A stretch of DNA of 13,955 nucleotides from a virus. Its lineage: Duplodnaviria > Heunggongvirae > Uroviricota > Caudoviricetes. Shown here piece by piece: positions 1 to 11,895 of the stretch (position 1 is its first letter; each line of letters begins with the position of its first letter). The DNA is taken from positions 1 to 13,955 of IMG/VR virus record IMGVR_UViG_3300012275_000032; one strand, written 5' to 3'. The position numbers and the translations under genes are program-made. The notes below the pieces were generated by a model, which saw only the letters and a list, made by a program, of their open reading frames with translations, was not told the origin of the DNA and searched no databases.

Positions 1-23
1 CGCTTTAACCATCAGCTCCATAC

Positions 24-248
24 TCATGCTGCACCTCCGAGATGCTTCATGTTTTTTCCGGAGCAAAAGGCTATAAGCGGCATACTGACGCGGTAATTAC
101 GGCCCAGCGGTTCACAAACCACCTTCTGACATTCACGGTCAACCAGGCTAACACGTAGAACATGCCCTGCAGGCGTGGTGTACCACTGACCCGGACGAGG
201 ACAACGGAAAGTCTGATTGGTAAAACGTTTGAAAATATTCCGGATCAT
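24..248 (-). CDS. Small hypothetical phage protein (74 aa)
   Basis: ORF whose ATG (246-248) overlaps the TGA stop (245-247) of the upstream ORF as ATGA, a typical translational-coupling junction. No family recognised. Confidence 0.4.
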   Translation of the reverse strand: MIRNIFKRFTNQTFRCPRPGQWYTTPAGHVLRVSLVDRECQKVVCEPLGRNYRVSMPLIAFCSGKNMKHLGGAA

Positions 249-1384
249 TTGCGCCCCCTTACCTCTGAAGGGTTCAGCGACAAATTTATGAGGCAGGCCA
301 GCGCCGAAGCATCATTAATATAATCATATAAGCTAACAGCCAGCGGAGATTCGGCTTTTGCCAACATAGGATAAAGCTGCTGCAGCCAGACCTGATGAAT
401 TGATGAAATGTAGGAACAGAGAACGCTGGCGTTATGTGCAACGTCGGGCTTTGAAAGCTGTTTCTCCATCTGGTTAAAGGCATTGATATATGCCTCTTTG
501 AACTGGGCAGCACGTTTACCCGTGAAACCCATAGCAAGAAACGCAAAACCGTCGCGTGTGATTTGGTAGCAAGGAAGTTTGCGACCTGTGCAATCAGTGT
601 AATCACTCACCGAAAAATTGCGGGCAGTGAATGATGCTGAGCATTCAAGCGTGCGGATCTTTTTCAGTACATCGTCATGACGTTTGGAGAAGAAGTTGGC
701 AACAGCCAGGGATGAAGTAACAGCCTGACCATCAACGATGGCAATTTCAGGTTGAGTGAGGGTTGGGATCGTAGCCATGATGGCAGCCTCTTTGGTGATT
801 TTTAATAACTCACCACCAAGGCTTTCCACGACCTTATTGGTGGTGAGACGTACAGGGGTGGAAATACCGGTCACCAAAGAACCCGGCCCAACCGAAGTTG
901 GCCCTGCACGCCCCACCATAATTTGGGCGTAATGCTGCTCATGACACAAAAAAACCGCAAGAGCGCGGTTGTGCGCTTTGGTGAATTCCGGGTTTCCACG
1001 CCCGGCACCCGTTTTATAAGGTGCCTGAACAGTGTAACGTCCCGGAATGGCAGAATCAATGTGTTGGTGGTCCGTCACACTCAACAAAATCACGCCTGAA
1101 TTTCCACAAAGGACTAAAGCACTCATGCGGGTAGTCTTTGCGAAGATAGATAACGCGCTGTGTTTCTGGTTCCCAACGAATAACATGAACATAAAGCCCT
1201 CTTCCGTCACGAAACCAGCGGTTAAGTTCCTGCACAACTCGCCCCCCACAGTCAGGTAAAGTTCTCTGTGGTTACTTACAGCCAGGTGATTTGGTAATCT
1301 GCATTCATGCCGTAACAACAGGTGTTCAGAGACGCTGACCACCAGCTGTTGCGACAAACGGTTATTTGCCGTTAAACTGTTCAT
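245..1384 (-). CDS. Phage regulatory protein with Rha-family motif in its C-terminal half; N-terminal 200 aa of uncertain validity (alternative start at 778 gives a 177-aa Rha-like protein)
   Basis: Motif TSSLAVANFFSKRHDDVLKKIRTL resembles the Rha (phage regulatory protein) signature as recalled. An internal ATG at 776-778 is preceded by AAAGAGG at good spacing. The ORF ATG at 1382-1384 overlaps the stop of the upstream CII-like gene (ATGA). The N-terminal part has unusual composition (very few Asp, many His/Cys). Confidence 0.45.
   Translation of the reverse strand: MNSLTANNRLSQQLVVSVSEHLLLRHECRLPNHLAVSNHRELYLTVGGELCRNLTAGFVTEEGFMFMLFVGNQKHSALSIFAKTTRMSALVLCGNSGVILLSVTDHQHIDSAIPGRYTVQAPYKTGAGRGNPEFTKAHNRALAVFLCHEQHYAQIMVGRAGPTSVGPGSLVTGISTPVRLTTNKVVESLGGELLKITKEAAIMATIPTLTQPEIAIVDGQAVTSSLAVANFFSKRHDDVLKKIRTLECSASFTARNFSVSDYTDCTGRKLPCYQITRDGFAFLAMGFTGKRAAQFKEAYINAFNQMEKQLSKPDVAHNASVLCSYISSIHQVWLQQLYPMLAKAESPLAVSLYDYINDASALACLINLSLNPSEVRGRK
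948..975 (-). terminator. Possible weak intrinsic terminator on the minus strand, inside the long ORF
   Basis: Minus-strand hairpin AACCGC-GCTCTT-GCGGTT (plus-strand 953-970) followed by a run of 5 T (plus-strand A-run 948-952). The stem is only 6 bp. Confidence 0.25.
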
Positions 1385-1932
1385 GCGTTAGTTTCTCCAC
1401 AGACACAAAACGCCACGACGCCCGGAGCTGCACACTCGCGGGCGTCACTCTTTTCTGGAGCGCAGAAAATTTTGTAGACCAGTGCCGCATGCTCCTGGAG
1501 CTTCGAAATTGAGAGGTACAGCTCGTCGTTAATTGCTGTCTTCTCATGCGGTTCCACTACACCGTCTTCAATTGCTGAACGAATCTGTTTTGAATAACTG
1601 CCGATCTGTTCAATGACCTCCAGCAGGCGTTGGTTGATATCGGCGTTGTCCACATCCTCGACATCAGGAAGAGACACAAAGACGCCATTTGCAGACTGCG
1701 CCACAGCGTCAGCAATGAAGTGAGTTCCACCAGCACGTTGCAAAATCATTGCCCATCCCAGCGGGAAAATCTGATCGCCATCGGCACGAAGGCGGTTAAA
1801 TAATGCGTTCTCTGTTACATCCAGCCAGTCAGCAGCTTCAGCGTACCCCCCAGGCAACGCTGCGATAGTTTTTCTGACAGCTTTCACGTACCACTCAGGC
1901 TGTTTTTCTACTTTCCAGTGATGCTTACCCAC
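1381..1932 (-). CDS. CII-like phage regulatory protein (183 aa), second gene of the cro-side operon
   Basis: Sits immediately downstream of the cro-like gene with an 8-nt overlap. Size and position match CII-type lysogeny regulators of lambdoid prophages. The family call is from memory, not a search. Confidence 0.5.
   Translation of the reverse strand: MGKHHWKVEKQPEWYVKAVRKTIAALPGGYAEAADWLDVTENALFNRLRADGDQIFPLGWAMILQRAGGTHFIADAVAQSANGVFVSLPDVEDVDNADINQRLLEVIEQIGSYSKQIRSAIEDGVVEPHEKTAINDELYLSISKLQEHAALVYKIFCAPEKSDARECAAPGVVAFCVCGETNA
1417..1456 (+). terminator. Plus-strand hairpin plus T-rich tail antisense to the 3' end of the CII-like gene (OOP-like terminator candidate)
   Basis: Perfect 8-bp stem GACGCCCG (1417-1424) / CGGGCGTC (1439-1446) with a 14-nt loop, followed by ACTCTTTTCT. 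A candidate promoter TTGCGA (1349-1354) with an 18-bp spacer to TAACTG-like TAAACT (1373-1378) lies upstream. Confidence 0.35.
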
Positions 1933-2185
1933 GGTTCACCTCCTGTTCCTGTGGTTTAAACCCATTCTGGTTTTGGCTAGATTGAAAACGTGCCGGATAA
2001 AGAATCTGCATTTCGCTGACTTCACCCTTAAAAAAATTGGCTAAACGTTCTGCAAGCTCGATAGATGGAATCTGCTCCAGCCTCTCAATACGACTCAACG
2101 TCGCTGGATTGACTTGAACACCCGCAGCAACATGCTGCAAAGTGAAACCATGCGCCTTACGCACATTTCGTAATGGTGATTGCAT
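1925..2185 (-). CDS. Cro-like HTH (XRE-family) transcriptional regulator (86 aa)
   Basis: Small ORF divergent from the CI-like repressor. HTH-like segment GFTLQHVAAGVQVNPATLSRIER. GGAGGG Shine-Dalgarno 6-11 nt upstream of the ATG (plus-strand 2191-2196). Confidence 0.7.
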   Translation of the reverse strand: MQSPLRNVRKAHGFTLQHVAAGVQVNPATLSRIERLEQIPSIELAERLANFFKGEVSEMQILYPARFQSSQNQNGFKPQEQEVNRG

Positions 2186-2282
2186 ACGCCCTCCAAATAT
2201 TGCGCGTTATGCATGTTATTTCACGCAATTATTTTGCGCAAGTTGATTTGCTTATCACGCAATAAAGAAATGTAATAAACGC
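2186..2282. promoter_or_regulatory. Divergent promoter/operator region between the cro-like and cI-like genes (OR-like)
   Basis: Repeated half-sites: ATTGCGCG (2199-2206), CACGCAAT (2222-2229 and 2256-2263) and the perfect palindrome TTGCGCAA (2234-2241). Minus-strand promoter candidate: -35 TTGCGC (plus 2236-2241), 17-bp spacer, -10 TAACAT (plus 2213-2218). No Shine-Dalgarno precedes the cI-like ATG; TAATAA at 2273-2278 suggests a leaderless or near-leaderless transcript. Confidence 0.55.
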
Positions 2283-2975
2283 ATGAACATAGGAAACCGA
2301 GTCAGACAACTTCGCCAAGCGAAGAACATGAAAATCGCCGATCTCGCTGAAGCGATAGGAGTAGATGCGGCGAACATCTCGCGCTTAGAAACGGGTAAGC
2401 AAAAACAATTTACCGAACAAACACTGAGTAATATTGCCAAGAGCTTAGGTGTTGATATTGCTGATCTCTTTACCTCTGCCCACAAAAGTAATACTGTATA
2501 TAAAAACAGTAATAATGAGGATGTTGCGCAGGTGAAGGATGTGTTCCGTATTGAAATGCTGGATATCAGTGCCAGTGCGGGAAATGGCCTTATCCAGGGC
2601 GGTGATGTCATTGATGTGATTCATGCCATCGAATACAGAACTGATAATGCTGTATCAATGTTCGGCGGACGACCAGCCAATCACATCAAAGTTATCAACG
2701 TTCGTGGGGACAGTATGTGTCCAACCATTGAGCCAGGAGATCTCATCTTCGTTGATGTCAGCATCAATCAGTTTGATGGTGATGGTATATATGTCTTTGG
2801 TTTTGATGACAAAATATACGTTAAAAGACTTCAAATGATTCCTGACAAACTGCTGGTGATTTCTGATAACCAGATTTACCGTGAATGGGGAATTACTAGC
2901 GAAAACGAACACCGATTCATGGTCTTTGGAAAGGTCTTAATCAGTCAGTCGCAAACCCTTAAGAGACATAATTAA
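2283..2975 (+). CDS. CI-like phage repressor, N-terminal HTH plus C-terminal S24 (LexA-like) peptidase domain (230 aa)
   Basis: N-terminal HTH (RVRQLRQAKNMKIADLAEAIGVDAANISRLETGK). C-terminal GDSMCPTIEPGDLIFVD (catalytic Ser) and IYVKRLQ (Lys), the Ser-Lys dyad pattern of self-cleaving repressors. Divergent from the cro-like gene. Confidence 0.85.
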   Translation: MNIGNRVRQLRQAKNMKIADLAEAIGVDAANISRLETGKQKQFTEQTLSNIAKSLGVDIADLFTSAHKSNTVYKNSNNEDVAQVKDVFRIEMLDISASAGNGLIQGGDVIDVIHAIEYRTDNAVSMFGGRPANHIKVINVRGDSMCPTIEPGDLIFVDVSINQFDGDGIYVFGFDDKIYVKRLQMIPDKLLVISDNQIYREWGITSENEHRFMVFGKVLISQSQTLKRHN

Positions 2976-2994
2976 CCTCAATATCCCATCCATC

Positions 2995-3017
2995 GGCCAC
3001 CGAAAGGTGGCTTTTTA
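2995..3017 (+). terminator. Intrinsic terminator downstream of the cI-like gene
   Basis: Stem GGCCACC (2995-3001), loop GAAA, stem GGTGGC (3006-3011), then TTTTTATT. Confidence 0.6.
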
Positions 3018-3029
3018 TTACCTATAAAT

Positions 3030-3080
3030 TTGCATATCTCGCAAATATCACTTGCATATCTCGCAATTTAATTTTATCTT
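3030..3080 (+). promoter_or_regulatory. Tandem 15-bp direct repeat overlapping a sigma70-like promoter (OL/pL-like candidate)
   Basis: TTGCATATCTCGCAA at 3030-3044 and again at 3052-3066. Promoter candidate: -35 TTGCAT (3052-3057), 17-bp spacer, -10 TATCTT (3075-3080). The TTGC...GCAA half-sites resemble the OR-region half-sites. Confidence 0.45.
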
Positions 3081-3273
3081 TTGTTCCAGACCAACTACAG
3101 GATTACAACAAAATCTGGTTGCAACACGGTGCATGTGTCGTAAGCAGTCAGTAAATGTCAAAAACGAACAGGCAGGACGCCCACGAAGTAGCCGCCTGGG
3201 GCATATGAAGTCCAGGATGATTCGTTGAGTCATGTTGTGCCACTAGGCACTCATGTTAAAGCAGGTGTATGAA

Positions 3274-3549
3274 ATGAAAGTCCAGATTTTAAACAATAAC
3301 TGTGAAGTCGTTTGGTCATACGACATAGCCGCCCCTGTAGATCAGAGCGGCGATAGCTGGACCAATGGGAAACATCAGATTATGGCTGGAGTTGTGTTCT
3401 CTTTACGCCGTGCTTTGGAACAGGCTGAAGTATTTCCATCAGACCCTGAATGGAAATGGCCTTTTTCTATTTGTCCAAATTCGGAGAGCACATTTCAGAA
3501 AATTGGTCAGAAAGTCGCACTCGAAGAGCATCAGCCAACTGTTTCCTGA
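3274..3549 (+). CDS. Hypothetical protein (91 aa from the ATG at 3274; the ORF track starts it at 3253)
   Basis: AGGTG about 7 nt upstream of the ATG at 3274. No recognisable family. Overlaps the convergent ORF 3467-3712 by 83 bp, so one of the two may be spurious. Confidence 0.3.
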   Translation: MKVQILNNNCEVVWSYDIAAPVDQSGDSWTNGKHQIMAGVVFSLRRALEQAEVFPSDPEWKWPFSICPNSESTFQKIGQKVALEEHQPTVS

Positions 3550-3712
3550 TTTTTTCAGGTAACTCGTCGGCATCGCAGAAACAACAACGCTCGATCATGT
3601 TGAAAGCCGATTCGTAGAACTGTTTTTGCTGAGTGTCGCTGAGACAGGAAAAGAGCGACGTTACGATGATTTTATTAATTGCATTATCAAGTTCTTTTTC
3701 ATCAAAAGTCAT
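3467..3712 (-). CDS. Hypothetical protein (81 aa), possible moron gene
   Basis: Good Shine-Dalgarno (AAGGAA) about 8 nt upstream of the ATG at 3710-3712. Helical-looking sequence with a CCFC motif. No family recognised. Confidence 0.4.
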   Translation of the reverse strand: MTFDEKELDNAINKIIVTSLFSCLSDTQQKQFYESAFNMIERCCFCDADELPEKIRKQLADALRVRLSDQFSEMCSPNLDK

Positions 3713-3779
3713 TTGATTTTCCTTTTATGTATACGGGCTTAAAAGGATACCACCGAGCCTGAAGTGGTAAAAAGACAGG

Positions 3780-4140
3780 CACATAACAGCTAAGTATTTT
3801 CAACCAGAGAGAATCCTTAGCGTTGTGGTGAATGCGGCTCAGCGCACGCGGGTTAAGGTTGAGGCTGACAGTCGACCTTCTGTGGATACCCACCCGCCTG
3901 GTGTGCAACCTTCGCCAGGCACCGGGAGGCACCCGGCACCACAACTTTATGCTGTGTGTAGTCCTGGTGGTACCAGTTTGTACCCTTGCTTCCGGCTGGT
4001 ACCGTCCTTTTTACAAAACAGAGAAGAGCATCACCGGACGACGGGCTCATAACCCAATCCATCCGGGCGGCTGCCACCGCAGGTGTTCTTCTCTGTTTTG
4101 TGGAGAAACCAACCGACCTTGCAGGGTCGATATGATGAGG
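3780..4140. other. GC-rich non-coding stretch with dense secondary-structure potential; candidate structured RNA or cis-acting site
   Basis: An 18-bp inverted repeat, 4013-4030 against 4084-4101 (17 Watson-Crick pairs plus one G-U), encloses 53 nt. Further stems: GCCTGG/CCAGGC (3896-3901/3915-3920), CCGGG/CCCGG (3922-3926/3932-3936), TGGTACCA palindrome around 3967-3974. All ORFs here look junk-like and overlap on both strands. Confidence 0.4.
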
Positions 4141-4149
4141 AGCAGCAAA

Positions 4150-4439
4150 ATGGCTAGCGAACGCAGTACTGATGTGCAGGCATTTATCGGGGAGCTGGAC
4201 GGCGGCGTATTTGAAACCAAAATCGGCGCAGTTCTCAGTGAAGTCGCTTCCGGTGTGATGAACACGAAAACCAAAGGGAAGGTCTCACTNNNNNNNNNNA
4301 AATTTCTGAAGAAGACACCACCGAAACGCCGATGTATGTCAATCGCGGTGGTCGCCTGACTATTCTGCAGGAAGACCAGGGACAATTACTGACTCTTGCC
4401 GGTGAACCTGACGGAAAACTCCGCGCAGCAGGTCATTAA
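4150..4439 (+). CDS. Hypothetical phage protein interrupted by an assembly gap
   Basis: GAGGAG 7 nt upstream of the ATG at 4150. Protein-like sequence MASERSTDVQAFIGELDGGVFETKIGAVLSEVASGV before the gap, and after the gap (in a different frame) ISEEDTTETPMYVNRGGRLTILQEDQGQLLTLAGEPDGKLRAAGH ending at TAA 4437-4439. Confidence 0.4.
4290..4299. other. Run of 10 N (assembly or masking gap) inside a coding region
   Basis: Literal n characters. The frame before and after differs, so the true gap length is not 10. Confidence 0.95.
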
Positions 4440-4504
4440 TATCGTTTTTAATTAACTGATTATTTATCTCATCACTGAATATTTTTATATAGTGAGGATT
4501 TATT

Positions 4505-5329
4505 ATGTCTCAGAACTTAGACGCAACCGCAATTAATCAAATCCATGCCCTTATTTCTGCTCAGGGTGTTAATGAAATTATCAGTAAGATTGGTGCCGAT
4601 GCTGTGGCATTGCCTGAGAATTTCCGCATTCATGATCTGGAAAAATTTAATTTAAATCGTTTCCGTTTCCGTGGTGCGCTTTCCACTGCCAGCATCGATG
4701 ACTTTACCCGTTATTCTAAAGATCTTGCAGATGAAGGCACCCGCTGCTTTATCGATGCCGATAATATGCGTGCCGTCAGTGTGCTTAACCTGGGTACTAT
4801 TGATGAACCAGGTCACGCCGATAACACCGCCACTCTCAAACTGAAAAAGACAGCACCGTTCTCTGCTCTGTTGTCTGTTAATGGCGAGCGTAATTCCCAG
4901 AAGTCACTGGCAGAATGGATTGAAGACTGGGCAGACTACCTTGTGGGCTTTGATGCTAATGGTGACGCTATTCAGGCAACAAAAGCGGCTGCGGCTGTCC
5001 GTAAAATCACGATTGAAGAAAACCAGACCGCTGATTTTGAAGATAATGACTTCAGCGGCAAACGCTCCCTGATGGAGTCTGTCGAAGCGAAGACCAAAGA
5101 CATTATGCCAGTGGCATTTGAATTTAAATGCGTTCCGTTTGAAGGCCTGAAAGAACGTCCGTTTAAATTACGCCTCAGCATTATCACTGGCGATCGTCCT
5201 GTACTGGTTCTGCGCATTATTCAGCTGGAAGCGGTGCAGGAAGATATGGCTAACGAATTTCGTGATCTGCTTGTTGAGAAATTCAAAGACAGCAAAGTAG
5301 AAACCTTTATTGGTACTTTCACCGCCTGA
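4505..5329 (+). CDS. YfdQ-like protein (DUF2303 family), 274 aa
   Basis: Clean ORF with GTGAGGA Shine-Dalgarno. Length and gene neighbourhood match the yfdQ-yfdR-yfdS-yfdT block of the K-12 CPS-53/KpLE1 prophage as I recall it. Not confirmed by search. Confidence 0.65.
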
Positions 5330-5456
5330 TTTCATTACTGCAAATGCCCCTGCGGGGGCATTTATGGAAACGTAATTAACTCAATAATCACCGGATGGTG
5401 AGGGCTTCATTTTACCAGAATTCAGCGTGGTGCAGCACATATACGTGGAGAACAAA

Positions 5457-5987
5457 ATGTCATTTATTAAAACTTTTTCCGGGAAGCATTTTTATTATGA
5501 CAGGATAAATAAAGACGACATCGTGATTAACGATATCGCGGTTTCCCTTTCAAATATCTGTCGCTTTGCAGGGCATCTTTCACACTTCTACAGCGTCGCC
5601 CAGCATGCGGTGCTTTGCAGCCAGTTGGTGCCGCAGGAATTGGCTTTTGAAGCGTTAATGCATGATGCAACAGAAGCTTAGGACATCCCCGCACCACTGA
5701 AACGCCTTCTTCCTGACTATAAACGGATGGAAGAAAAAATAGACGCCGTAATCCGTGAGAAATACGGGTTACCCCCAGTTATGAGTACGCCCGTGAAATA
5801 TGCCGATCTCATCATGCTGGCAACCGAACGCCGCGATCTCGGGCTTGATGATGGCTCTTTCTGGCCTGTACTGGAAGGCATCCCGGCAACAGAGATGTTC
5901 AACGTGATTCCACTGGCTCCAGGCCATGCCTACGGGATGTTTATGGAACGCTTTAACGAATTATCGGAGTTACGCAAATGCGCATAA
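5457..5987 (+). pseudogene. YfdR-like HD-domain phosphohydrolase (5'-deoxynucleotidase family) interrupted by an in-frame TAG
   Basis: ORF 5427/5457-5681 ends at TAG (5679-5681) directly after the HD motif (ALMHDATEA). The same frame continues DIPAPLKRLLPDYKRMEEK... into ORF 5727-5987. GGAGAA Shine-Dalgarno before the ATG at 5457. Total length about 176 codons, consistent with one gene. Confidence 0.6.
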
Positions 5988-6340
5988 ATGTTTTCGAAAT
6001 GGAAGGGTTTCTTCGCGGGAAATGTGTACCGCGAGATCTGAAAGTGAACGAAACAAATGCTGAGTACCTGGTACGTAAATTCGACGCGCTTGAAGCTAAA
6101 TGTGCGGCACTGGAAAGCAAAATAATACCAGTGTCAGCTGAACTGCCACCAGCAAATGAAAGTGTTCTGTTATTTGATGCTAACGGAGAAGGCTGGCTGA
6201 TTGGCTGGCGTTCTCTCTGGTACACCTGGGGACAAAAAGAAACCGGAGAATGGCAGTGGACATTTCAGGTCGGGGACCTTGAAAACGTCAATATCACTCA
6301 CTGGGCAGTAATGCCGAAAGCACCAGAGACTAAGAAATGA
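5978..6340 (+). CDS. YfdS-like hypothetical phage protein (120 aa)
   Basis: ORF overlapping the end of the YfdR-like gene by 10 nt. Length matches K-12 YfdS (120 aa) as recalled. Confidence 0.55.
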   Translation: MRINVFEMEGFLRGKCVPRDLKVNETNAEYLVRKFDALEAKCAALESKIIPVSAELPPANESVLLFDANGEGWLIGWRSLWYTWGQKETGEWQWTFQVGDLENVNITHWAVMPKAPETKK

Positions 6341-6525
6341 GCGTGATAAAAACTCATACAGGAATTGTTATCACCCGAGACGGTGAAAAGCGGATGAAAT
6401 TACATTCCACTGAAACGTCCTGGGTTGCCGGACGTTGTGAATCCTACGACAAAAAGACTGGTTACCGTTGGGGGGGGCACCTAACATGCGTCGCCGTCTG
6501 CTACTGGACAGCATCAGGCCAATAA
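6337..6525 (+). CDS. YfdT-like hypothetical protein, probably truncated or frameshifted (62 aa)
   Basis: ATGA overlap with the upstream stop. Contains a G8 homopolymer (6470-6477), after which the translation looks junk-like. Confidence 0.35.
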   Translation: MSVIKTHTGIVITRDGEKRMKLHSTETSWVAGRCESYDKKTGYRWGGHLTCVAVCYWTASGQ

Positions 6526-6613
6526 AACAGGTAGCAACCAGGGAACAAAATTAATTATCAGGACTGGAATTTGATATTACTGCCCGTGTGCAGCGGGCTA
6601 AGTGGAGAAACAT

Positions 6614-6820
6614 ATGCTGAACCTCGATTGTGTTCCAATCTCAACTTATTGCAAAGAAACTGGCGAAACTCCTGAAGCAATAAACAAACGTGTACAGCGC
6701 GGTGTTTGGCGTGAAGGTGTTCAGGTTTTAAAGGTTGAAGGCGTTAAGGAGAGGTGGATTGATCTTAGTGAGGTTGCAAAATGGGCCAGACAAAACTGCT
6801 CAAACTACCGCGCGGCGTAA
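6614..6820 (+). CDS. Excisionase-like protein (Xis), 68 aa from the ATG at 6614 (the ORF track begins at GTG 6602)
   Basis: Small basic protein immediately upstream of the integrase and overlapping it by 40 nt, the classic xis-int arrangement. GGAG (6604-6607) about 6 nt upstream of the ATG at 6614. Confidence 0.55.
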   Translation: MLNLDCVPISTYCKETGETPEAINKRVQRGVWREGVQVLKVEGVKERWIDLSEVAKWARQNCSNYRAA

Positions 6821-7977
6821 CAATCAGGAAACACCGCCAGGGCGAAACGATCAATATAACTTTCACCTACAAAGGAGTTAGATGTCGTGAGCCTCTTTCC
6901 AATCTGGAAGTAACACCAAAGAACATTAAATACGCCGAGCGCACACTCGGCGAAATTCATAATAAGATCGAAAGGGGAACATTCATTTATGCGGAATATT
7001 TTCCCCGTTCTGCTCGTTTGAAAATTTTTGGTAATGCTGCTGCAGGCAAAACGGTAAAAATGTACCTGGACGAATACCTTGAAATCTGCGAAACGAGAAA
7101 ACTTTCACCATCTACGATTGGTGGTTATAAAAAATGCCGTAGTGCGTTAGCCTCACTCCACATTTGCCCTGCAAGTGAATTAACACCAGCAATCCTGAAA
7201 GCGTGGATTCAAAGCCAAAAAACGACCTTAAAAACCATTCGCAACCAGTTATCTTTCCTGCGGTCAGCACTTGATGAAGCCGTAACCGATGGGGTACTTC
7301 AAATTAATCCCGTATCGTTAGTAACTGCTTCGCGCTACCAAAGTGATAAGTCAGAAGCAGAAAGCAGCTACGTGGTTGATCCGCTATCACCAGCAGAAGT
7401 TGATGCATTACTAGCAGCAGCCGGAAACAAACAATGGGAGAATCTGTTCCGGTTTGCTATACATACGGGCCTGCGTAGTTCTGAATTATGTGCCCTTCGA
7501 TGGCGTGATATCGACTTTGTTGGAAAAACTGCCCATGTCCAGAGCGCAAGTGTTGTCGGTGTTATCAAAGGAACAAAGACAAAAGCCGGTACTCGTAAAG
7601 TTGAACTGACAGAAGAGGCAATGTTGGCGCTGATAAACCAGAAGCCATTTACATTCATGAAGGATGCTACTGTCTTTGAAGATCCAAAGACCAATAAGCC
7701 TTGGGCAAGTGCTGATGCAATCAGGAAAAAAGCATGGGTGCCAACATTGCGAAAAGCAGGTATTCGTTACAGAAACCCATATCAAACCAGGCATACATTC
7801 GCCACCAGCCATATCAGCCGAGGAGCAAACCTGTTTTGGCTTGCAGCTCAAATGGGGCATAAAGGGCCGGAAATGCTTTTCAGGCATTATGGTTCGTATC
7901 TCGTAGACTATGATGGCAAGACAGCTTGTAAGGACCAAGTATCAAAAAATCCGGAGAACATGAAAATTGAGAAGTAA
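6781..7977 (+). CDS. Tyrosine site-specific integrase (lambda family, with N-terminal arm-binding domain), 398 aa
   Basis: N-terminus LPRGVTIRKH...FTYKGVRCREPL resembles the arm-binding (DUF3596-type) domain. Catalytic motifs present: TGLRSSEL (Arg), KTKAG (Lys), RHTFATSH (His-x-x-Arg), GH...FRHYGSY (His, Tyr). GAGG Shine-Dalgarno upstream. Confidence 0.9.
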   Translation: MGQTKLLKLPRGVTIRKHRQGETINITFTYKGVRCREPLSNLEVTPKNIKYAERTLGEIHNKIERGTFIYAEYFPRSARLKIFGNAAAGKTVKMYLDEYLEICETRKLSPSTIGGYKKCRSALASLHICPASELTPAILKAWIQSQKTTLKTIRNQLSFLRSALDEAVTDGVLQINPVSLVTASRYQSDKSEAESSYVVDPLSPAEVDALLAAAGNKQWENLFRFAIHTGLRSSELCALRWRDIDFVGKTAHVQSASVVGVIKGTKTKAGTRKVELTEEAMLALINQKPFTFMKDATVFEDPKTNKPWASADAIRKKAWVPTLRKAGIRYRNPYQTRHTFATSHISRGANLFWLAAQMGHKGPEMLFRHYGSYLVDYDGKTACKDQVSKNPENMKIEK

Positions 7978-9433: not shown

Positions 9434-10119
9434 TGGGAAGCGAAGATCTGTTCAAAAAAAGAAAGGCTCGGCGTAATAATGAATTCAAACGAGTTAGTAA
9501 AGCACGAGCTCAAATGAAGAAAATTCTTATCGTCTGTGAGGGAGAGAAGACTGAGCCCGCATATTTTACAGATTTTATAAAACATTGCCGTATAAGCACG
9601 GCAAGCATAGTTGAGATTTCTGGAGAGTGCGGCTCAAGCCCTATGAATGTGGTATCTTGGGCAAAAGAAAAATATAATACGGAAAAAAAAAGGAGCGACC
9701 CTTATGATAAGGTTTATTGTGTCTTTGATAGAGACGCTCACCCTAACTATGATGAAGCTCTTAGCAGGATTAATTCCTTAAATCCAAAAGGGATTTTTGT
9801 TGCTATAACTTCCATACCATGTTTCGAGTACTGGCTGATACTACATTTTGGATACACCCGAAAATCATTTTCACCTCAGAAAGGCAAAAGTGAAGGCGCA
9901 CAAATGCTAGCTGAGTTAAAAAAATACATGCCAGATTATGAGAAAAAGGCATCAGGTGTATTTAATAAATTGCAAGATCGGCTCGATACGGCATTAATCA
10001 ATGCTAAAAGAGTCGAAGATGCCGCCAAAAAAGACGGTTCGATAAATCCTTCAACTAAAGTTGGCGCTTTGATTACAGATCTAATTAACATTCGTGATGA
10101 CTTTGAAAATGAGAAGTAA
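9433..10119 (+). CDS. RloB-like / Toprim-like partner protein (AbiLii-like), 228 aa from the ATG at 9433 (the ORF track begins at 9418)
   Basis: TAATG stop-start overlap with the ATPase gene and GGGAG Shine-Dalgarno (9419-9425). Basic N-terminal tail, then ILIVCEGEKTEPAYF (Toprim Glu, nt about 9526-9570) and a downstream FDRDAH (DxD) motif, the RloB-family signature as recalled. Confidence 0.8.
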   Translation: MGSEDLFKKRKARRNNEFKRVSKARAQMKKILIVCEGEKTEPAYFTDFIKHCRISTASIVEISGECGSSPMNVVSWAKEKYNTEKKRSDPYDKVYCVFDRDAHPNYDEALSRINSLNPKGIFVAITSIPCFEYWLILHFGYTRKSFSPQKGKSEGAQMLAELKKYMPDYEKKASGVFNKLQDRLDTALINAKRVEDAAKKDGSINPSTKVGALITDLINIRDDFENEK

Positions 10120-10244: not shown

Positions 10245-10266
10245 GACGCGGGTTCAACTCCCGCCA
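10245..10266 (+). other. Partial copy of the tmRNA (ssrA) 3' end: prophage/island att core (attR-like boundary)
   Basis: GACGCGGGTTCAACTCCCGCCAGC matches the T-arm and 3' acceptor strand of E. coli tmRNA (recalled as ...GGACGCGGGTTCAACTCCCGCCAGCTCCACCA). It then diverges (CCCCAATCA), and no tmRNA body lies upstream. Confidence 0.7.
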
Positions 10267-10400
10267 GCCCCCAATCATGATTGGACGGTGTAAGGACTAC
10301 ACCAACAAAAACAGGAAGTTATAAGTCTCAGCAGGACACCGACCAGACGGTGAGGAGACAAAAAAGGATACGCAACGGAGTCGCGACTCCCTATGACATT

Positions 10401-10856: not shown

Positions 10857-11895
<1,039 letters not shown>

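Follow-up and report, generated by a model that had tools for sequence, protein, structure and literature searches.

The window analysed here, a 13,955 nt stretch of DNA recorded as a Caudoviricetes virus (IMG/VR record IMGVR_UViG_3300012275_000032), contains a yfdR-like reading frame which is interrupted by a single amber codon and is otherwise open. The question raised by this locus is whether the TAG is the trace of a recent mutation, a stop that is suppressed or read through, the border between two separately translated genes or an error in a draft sequence. We consider it fairly likely that it is a recent, private loss-of-function lesion in an accessory prophage gene, brought about by a deletion of six bases. 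The features needed to follow the argument are these:

5457-5987, plus strand: disrupted yfdR-like HD-domain gene (5'-deoxynucleotidase family); 74 sense codons, TAG, 101 sense codons, TAA
5661-5675, plus strand: HD motif and the following Glu (H69, D70, A71, T72, E73), retained in the truncated product and aligned to Atu1052 (2gz4) and YfbR (2paq)
5679-5681, plus strand: in-frame TAG at codon 75, a hybrid of the TA of ancestral Tyr75 (TAT) and the G of ancestral Gln77 (CAG)
5680-5681, plus strand: deletion junction; compared with the ancestral allele, ATTGTC (or, with equal result, TTGTCA) has been lost, with a microhomology of just 1 nt (A)
5682-5684, plus strand: GAC, coding in the intact protein for Asp78, the conserved Asp of HDAxE-x4-D; it is the first codon past the TAG and is untranslated

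The interrupted frame and its intact homologues

Translation of positions 5457-5989 gave MSF...LMHDATEA*DIPAPLK...LRKCA*, or, written out further, MSFIKTF...QELAFEALMHDATEA*DIPAPLKRLLPDYKRMEEK...SELRKCA*. The frame runs from the ATG at 5457, which is preceded nine bases upstream by GGAG, to the TAA at 5985-5987, and no further stop occurs in it between the TAG and this TAA. The HD dyad (H69-D70) is encoded at 5661-5666 and the TAG stands five codons after the HD motif. The amber codon that the initial annotation had placed at 5679-5681, after the HD motif of a YfdR-like gene, was confirmed by this translation, the frame being open on both sides. Its statement that the two halves together have the expected length did not hold, as the window allele has 74 + 1 + 101 = 176 codons against 178 in intact genes, six bases being absent at the TAG.

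A 671-base query around yfdR found matches of 90-97% identity in 2,972 of the 5,426 complete E. coli genomes, in regions annotated as 'yfdR: 5'-deoxynucleotidase' (95-97% in 1,593 E. coli records, 90-95% in another 1,385), and every full-length match spanned six bases more than the query. The homology to annotated yfdR extends over the whole length, which places the gene in the YfdR / YfbR-like family of HD-domain 5'-deoxynucleotidases. In the alignments to Atu1052 (2gz4, E = 7e-14) and YfbR (2paq, weak, E = 0.89) the motif HDA-x-E-x4-D-(I/L/M)-x-x-P-x-K passes the site without a gap. These two solved HD-domain homologues have the motif in common with YfdR, but they are distant relatives and are chromosomal, not prophage-borne. 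The intact ancestor scored 25.4 bits against the Pfam YfbR-like family PF12917 (residues 41-104), just below the cut-off of 25.9, and neither of the yfdR fragments gave a Pfam match.

The K-12 protein (b2361, in the cryptic prophage CPS-53), a DnaA-binding HD-domain 5'-deoxynucleotidase, agrees with the window gene in family, in start and in the yfdP-yfdQ-yfdR-yfdS order; the DNA identity is approx. 96-97%, and around the HD motif the two proteins do not differ. It differs in having all 178 codons (GCG TAT TGC CAG at the site) and in lying in CPS-53, whereas the window prophage is next to glaH-lhgO-gabD.

Intact genes were also the rule elsewhere. The standard 178-codon ORF was present in 107 of the 116 testable yfdR copies of IMG/VR, and the remaining copies were mostly a variant with a different C-terminal end, which is unbroken at the deletion site. 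Among ten places found through the downstream AbiL ATPase, nine carried a 178-aa yfdR and in the tenth a 174-aa gene was called. The pN/pS ratio over 76 distinct intact alleles was approx. 0.10 (0.107 when codons that the search pattern fixes are left out). The intact gene occurs widely and is under purifying selection. Homologues that naturally end at this point and are followed by a separate gene, which the initial annotation had named as a finding that would speak against a mutation, were not the pattern seen; single genes of 178 aa were.

The six-base deletion and its reality

Close relatives were found by means of the intact upstream neighbour of yfdR.

4505-5329, plus strand: yfdQ (DUF2303), intact, used to find the closest relatives

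Six assemblies have contigs encoding exactly the YfdQ protein of the window, and all six carry a 178-aa yfdR. Five relatives (L016-L020, NCBI assemblies GCA_052052275.1, GCA_040015795.1, GCA_028643655.1, GCA_045572915.1 and GCA_012993645.1) aligned to window positions 4300-7823 with zero mismatches and one 6-bp gap, and L016 also matched positions 2078-4289 at 100%, so that approx. 5.7 kb in all was free of substitutions. Both halves of the interrupted gene are 100% identical to the 178-aa genes of these five. The open frame 3' of the TAG is thus, on sequence identity to the 3' part of the intact 178-codon genes of the relatives, no chance ORF.

At the site the relatives read GAA GCT TAT TGT CAG GAC and the window reads GAA GCT TAG GAC (window allele GCTTAGGAC, intact form GCTTATTGTCAGGAC). 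They share with the window even the rarer GCT TAT TGT codons and the F62L variant, but they retain ATTGTC, and their yfdR product has 178 aa. The window allele is obtained from that of L016, over its full 531 nt, by two equivalent 6-bp deletions only, that of ATTGTC and that of TTGTCA. Since either of them alone gives the window allele, the TAG is a hybrid codon, left behind by the removal of Tyr75, Cys76 and Gln77. The initial annotation had called the stop a recent nonsense mutation, the original codon of which should be identified by alignment with intact YfdR. A premature amber stop it is, and a recent one, given the lack of substitutions against the relatives over approx. 5.7 kb; but it arose by a 6-bp deletion and not by a nonsense substitution. 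No single base substitution in a sense codon is involved, and there is no single original codon, because the TAG replaces three. No repeat or homopolymer was present at the junction. A stop is created by 14 of the 525 possible 6-bp deletions in the yfdR ORF (2.7%), and the stop-creating outcome is a mild coincidence.

Two other derivations were tried and rejected. Starting from the K-12-type alleles (K-12, GF153, 4/1-1 and 24AR0070; GAA GCG TAT TGC CAG GAC), either two 3-bp deletions or a deletion plus substitutions were required, and this reconstruction was superseded by the YfdQ-identical relatives; a guessed intermediate, GCT TAT TGC, was not found in E. coli. A Dcm (CCWGG) hotspot, with a CAG to TAG change in the CCAGG of the TGCCAGG found in most alleles, was discarded as the direct ancestor reads TGTCAGG, which has no Dcm motif, and the change is a deletion. 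The comparison with K-12-type alleles was misleading, and for such reconstructions the closest allele is needed, not any homologue. More generally, a point mutation is not the only possible origin of an in-frame stop flanked on both sides by open frame.

The deleted allele was not found among the 5,426 complete E. coli genomes; there, a 101-base probe gave a best full-coverage match of 93.5% identity, with the six extra bases. It was likewise absent from the species-representative genomes, IMG/VR and the JGI metagenomes. As a positive control, the intact site was recovered from at least 120 IMG/VR contigs. Neither truncated product (74 aa or 84 aa) had a record in the gene-position index. Judged from these comparisons, the lesion is younger than any substitution in approx. 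5.7 kb of flanking DNA and is private to the window sequence.

This very privacy also fits another explanation, namely that yfdR is intact in the strain and the six bases were lost in sequencing, assembly or data processing. The lesion is known from one sequence only, an N-gapped draft. Two runs of ten N take the place of ordinary gene sequence that is present in near-identical relatives: 83 bases of yfdP at 4290-4299 and 48 bases of glaH at 11687-11696. The window is accordingly a scaffolded or masked draft. Because of these runs, the truncated glaH ORF (10956-11717) and an odd 175-aa ORF (3832-4359) are artefacts, and a pseudogene-rich (Shigella-like) genome, which the truncated glaH could have suggested, was ruled out. 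The deletion is the sole difference from five assemblies over approx. 5.7 kb, it was seen nowhere else in genomes, IMG/VR or metagenomes, and E. coli genomes hold up to four yfdR copies, which may confuse assemblers. However, the flanks of the deletion are free of errors, and prophage genes often carry genuine private indels of this type. Short-read and long-read consensus errors do not typically take the form of a clean 6-bp loss away from homopolymers and repeats. We regard an artefact as unlikely, though it is a doubt of some weight.

Consequences of the stop and alternative readings

If the deletion is real, it would have fused the first two bases of the Tyr75 codon (TA) with the last base of the Gln77 codon (G) and so created the in-frame TAG, in a lambdoid prophage of an E. 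coli chromosome. This prophage is related to mEp460 and SfV, and yfdR lies in its early-left operon (cI, yfdP, yfdQ, yfdR, yfdS ... int). Ribosomes would stop after 74 residues, and the lesion would represent the ordinary decay of an accessory prophage gene, with neither a recoding device nor a suppressible point mutation behind it.

The window product ends after HDATEA. In these 74 residues the first His and the HD dyad are kept, while Asp78 and everything downstream is untranslated and the C-terminal 60% of the HD domain is lost. The complete set of HD-domain motifs (H...HD...E-x4-D...D) is not found on one uninterrupted polypeptide, and the gene is a disrupted member of the family, a pseudogene. 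From the loss of these motifs, the phosphohydrolase activity of the truncated product is expected to be dead. YfdR of K-12 binds domain I of DnaA, and extra copies or overexpression of yfdQRST inhibit initiation at oriC (PMC4776307); this DnaA-binding, replication-inhibiting role reported for YfdR would most likely be lost too. A real lesion would have deprived the prophage of a protein for which DnaA binding has been reported, with no sign here of a phenotype. For annotation, this yfdR copy should be treated as a pseudogene with an internal stop due to a 6-bp deletion, and not as two genes or a recoded gene. Beyond annotation the significance is slight; the kind of lesion is already known and the gene is a well-known prophage accessory gene.

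It is very unlikely that the lesion is adaptive, either in that a YfdR knock-out would relieve the cost of carrying the prophage or in that the 74-aa fragment would keep a DnaA-binding or regulatory activity. If it were so, independent lesions at the same three codons, such as the -1 frameshift described below, could mark a preferred site of inactivation.

Still less probable is a suppressible amber, or natural readthrough, which would yield functional YfdR. The stop is indeed a TAG and the frame downstream of it is intact, and the initial annotation had expected the full-length protein to be made in an amber suppressor strain. Read by a suppressor (supE), however, the TAG would give a protein of 176 aa from which Tyr75 and Cys76 are missing, so that the conserved Glu and Asp are spaced as E-x2-D in place of E-x4-D. 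Since the TAG replaces three codons, the wild-type protein is not restorable by suppression. No tRNA gene was found in the window. The arrangement is not that of K-12, and none of the complete E. coli genomes in the collection, K-12 MG1655 included, reached 80% coverage of the window. On this comparison the supE lab-strain origin is unsupported, MG1655 having a different yfdR allele in CPS-53. No homologue in the E. coli genomes, the representative genomes, IMG/VR or the metagenomes has a TAG at the same position, and no unusual RNA structure lies downstream of the TAG (MFE z = -1.47, equalled or bettered by 19 of 200 shuffles), which argues against recoding. The stop is followed by a G, and this does not make for a leaky context in E. 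coli.

The remaining alternative concerns the open frame that follows the stop.

5727-5987, plus strand: residual 86-codon ORF, beginning at the first in-frame ATG past the TAG

In a naturally split gene the 74-aa N-terminal and the 86-aa C-terminal part would be separately translated subunits. The 86-aa product from the ATG at 5727 is called in many assemblies, and in these the 5' half of the gene is damaged or absent. In the ten such loci examined it was broken by a different kind of accident from place to place: a -1 frameshift in L011, L012 and L014, an IS1 end in L005, rearrangement junctions in L006, L007, L010 and L013, and scaffold Ns in L008 and L009. Looking up places by the 86-aa product itself selects for breaks just upstream of the ATG at 5727. 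A recombination or breakpoint hotspot at the site, suggested by several of these loci in which yfdR homology is lost close to this point, was rejected as well, the junctions being different (the IS1 end at approx. 5670, two at approx. 5686, two at 5615 and two scaffold Ns). Because no Shine-Dalgarno-like sequence precedes the ATG at 5727, the 86-codon ORF is probably not expressed; neither start signals of its own nor homologues regularly ending at this point were found. With intact single-chain genes dominating under purifying selection, and PGAP marking a comparable case as 'frameshifted', a split gene is the least credible of the readings considered. Suppression, readthrough and a split gene, taken together as ways to a functional product, are very unlikely.

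The comparable case is a -1 frameshift, TATTGCCAGG to TATTGCAGG, in the same Tyr-Cys-Gln codons. It was seen in L011, L012 and L014 (at approx. 9945-9955) and in L151 (601-640; E. coli PapM-36-2), where PGAP labels the gene 'frameshifted' (G6008_RS08435). These pseudogenes resemble the window allele in that the gene is inactivated in the same three codons and the same 86-codon residual ORF is left. They differ in the lesion, a -1 shift in the CCAGG (Dcm) motif of TGCCAGG, on at least two allele backgrounds, as against a 6-bp deletion in a TGTCAGG lineage without the Dcm motif. The frameshift allele is rare (1 and 0 of the 5,426 complete genomes for two allele backgrounds, 0 in IMG/VR), and by this rarity a common natural split was ruled out. 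It could be a genuine mutation that recurs, or else an error in long-read consensus calling at a methylated motif.

Prophage setting and neighbouring observations

Over positions 1-6384 the window resembles two lambdoid phages, mEp460 and SfV, in their immunity and early-left region (approx. 95-96% identity). The minus strand carries a Rha/Ash-type ORF, a CII-like (CP76) gene and cro, and on the plus strand cI, a 98-aa ORF, yfdP, yfdQ, yfdR, yfdS and small ORFs are followed by the integrase. The yfdP-yfdQ-yfdR-yfdS synteny of the lambdoid early-left region is therefore present. Downstream of yfdR the principal genes of the operon are the following:

5978-6340, plus strand: yfdS-like gene (DUF551), the ATG of which overlaps the end of yfdR by 10 nt, with GGAG 8 nt upstream of this ATG
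6781-7977, plus strand: tyrosine integrase of the prophage, closing the same leftward early operon

An effect of the premature stop on yfdS by lost translational coupling or by polarity is possible.

The integrase is followed by an AbiL-type defence pair, an att-like remnant and then chromosomal glaH, lhgO and gabD (approx. 98-99% identity to E. coli). The two-gene AbiL-type anti-phage system (8168-10119, plus strand) is cargo between the integrase and the att remnant, and consists of an AbiLi-like AAA_21 ATPase (421 aa, PADLOC E = 4e-101) and an AbiLii/RloB protein (233 aa). The identical ATPase occurs in approx. 2,400 blocks of the public gene-position index, next to this integrase in all ten places examined. 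At approx. 10245-10272 the window reads CGGGTTCAACTCCCGCCAGCCCCCA, which looks like the 3' terminus of a tRNA or tmRNA gene and probably represents what is left of an att site. Three single-base gaps separate this sequence from the copy in E. coli 24AR0070 (…CAGCTCCACCA).

Two Rfam families matched above their gathering scores on the minus strand, the C4 antisense RNA at 836-923 (83.6 bits) and isrK at 948-1024 (67.9 bits). Both lie inside a 379-aa ORF (245-1384, minus strand) with Phage_ASH and Rha domains, and part of this predicted 'ORF' may be an RNA-based immunity or antirepressor control region. The same Rha-family gene has a 12-bp in-frame gap at 421-445 relative to 24AR0070 (379 against 383 aa), which is probably ordinary allelic variation. 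At 6470-6477 a run of eight G stands in place of the GGGGTG of other prophages, and the resulting +2 shift alters the end of a 71-aa gene and leaves a 62-aa ORF (6337-6525). This change is older than the yfdR deletion, since L016 has the same run and L017-L020 are identical to the window there.
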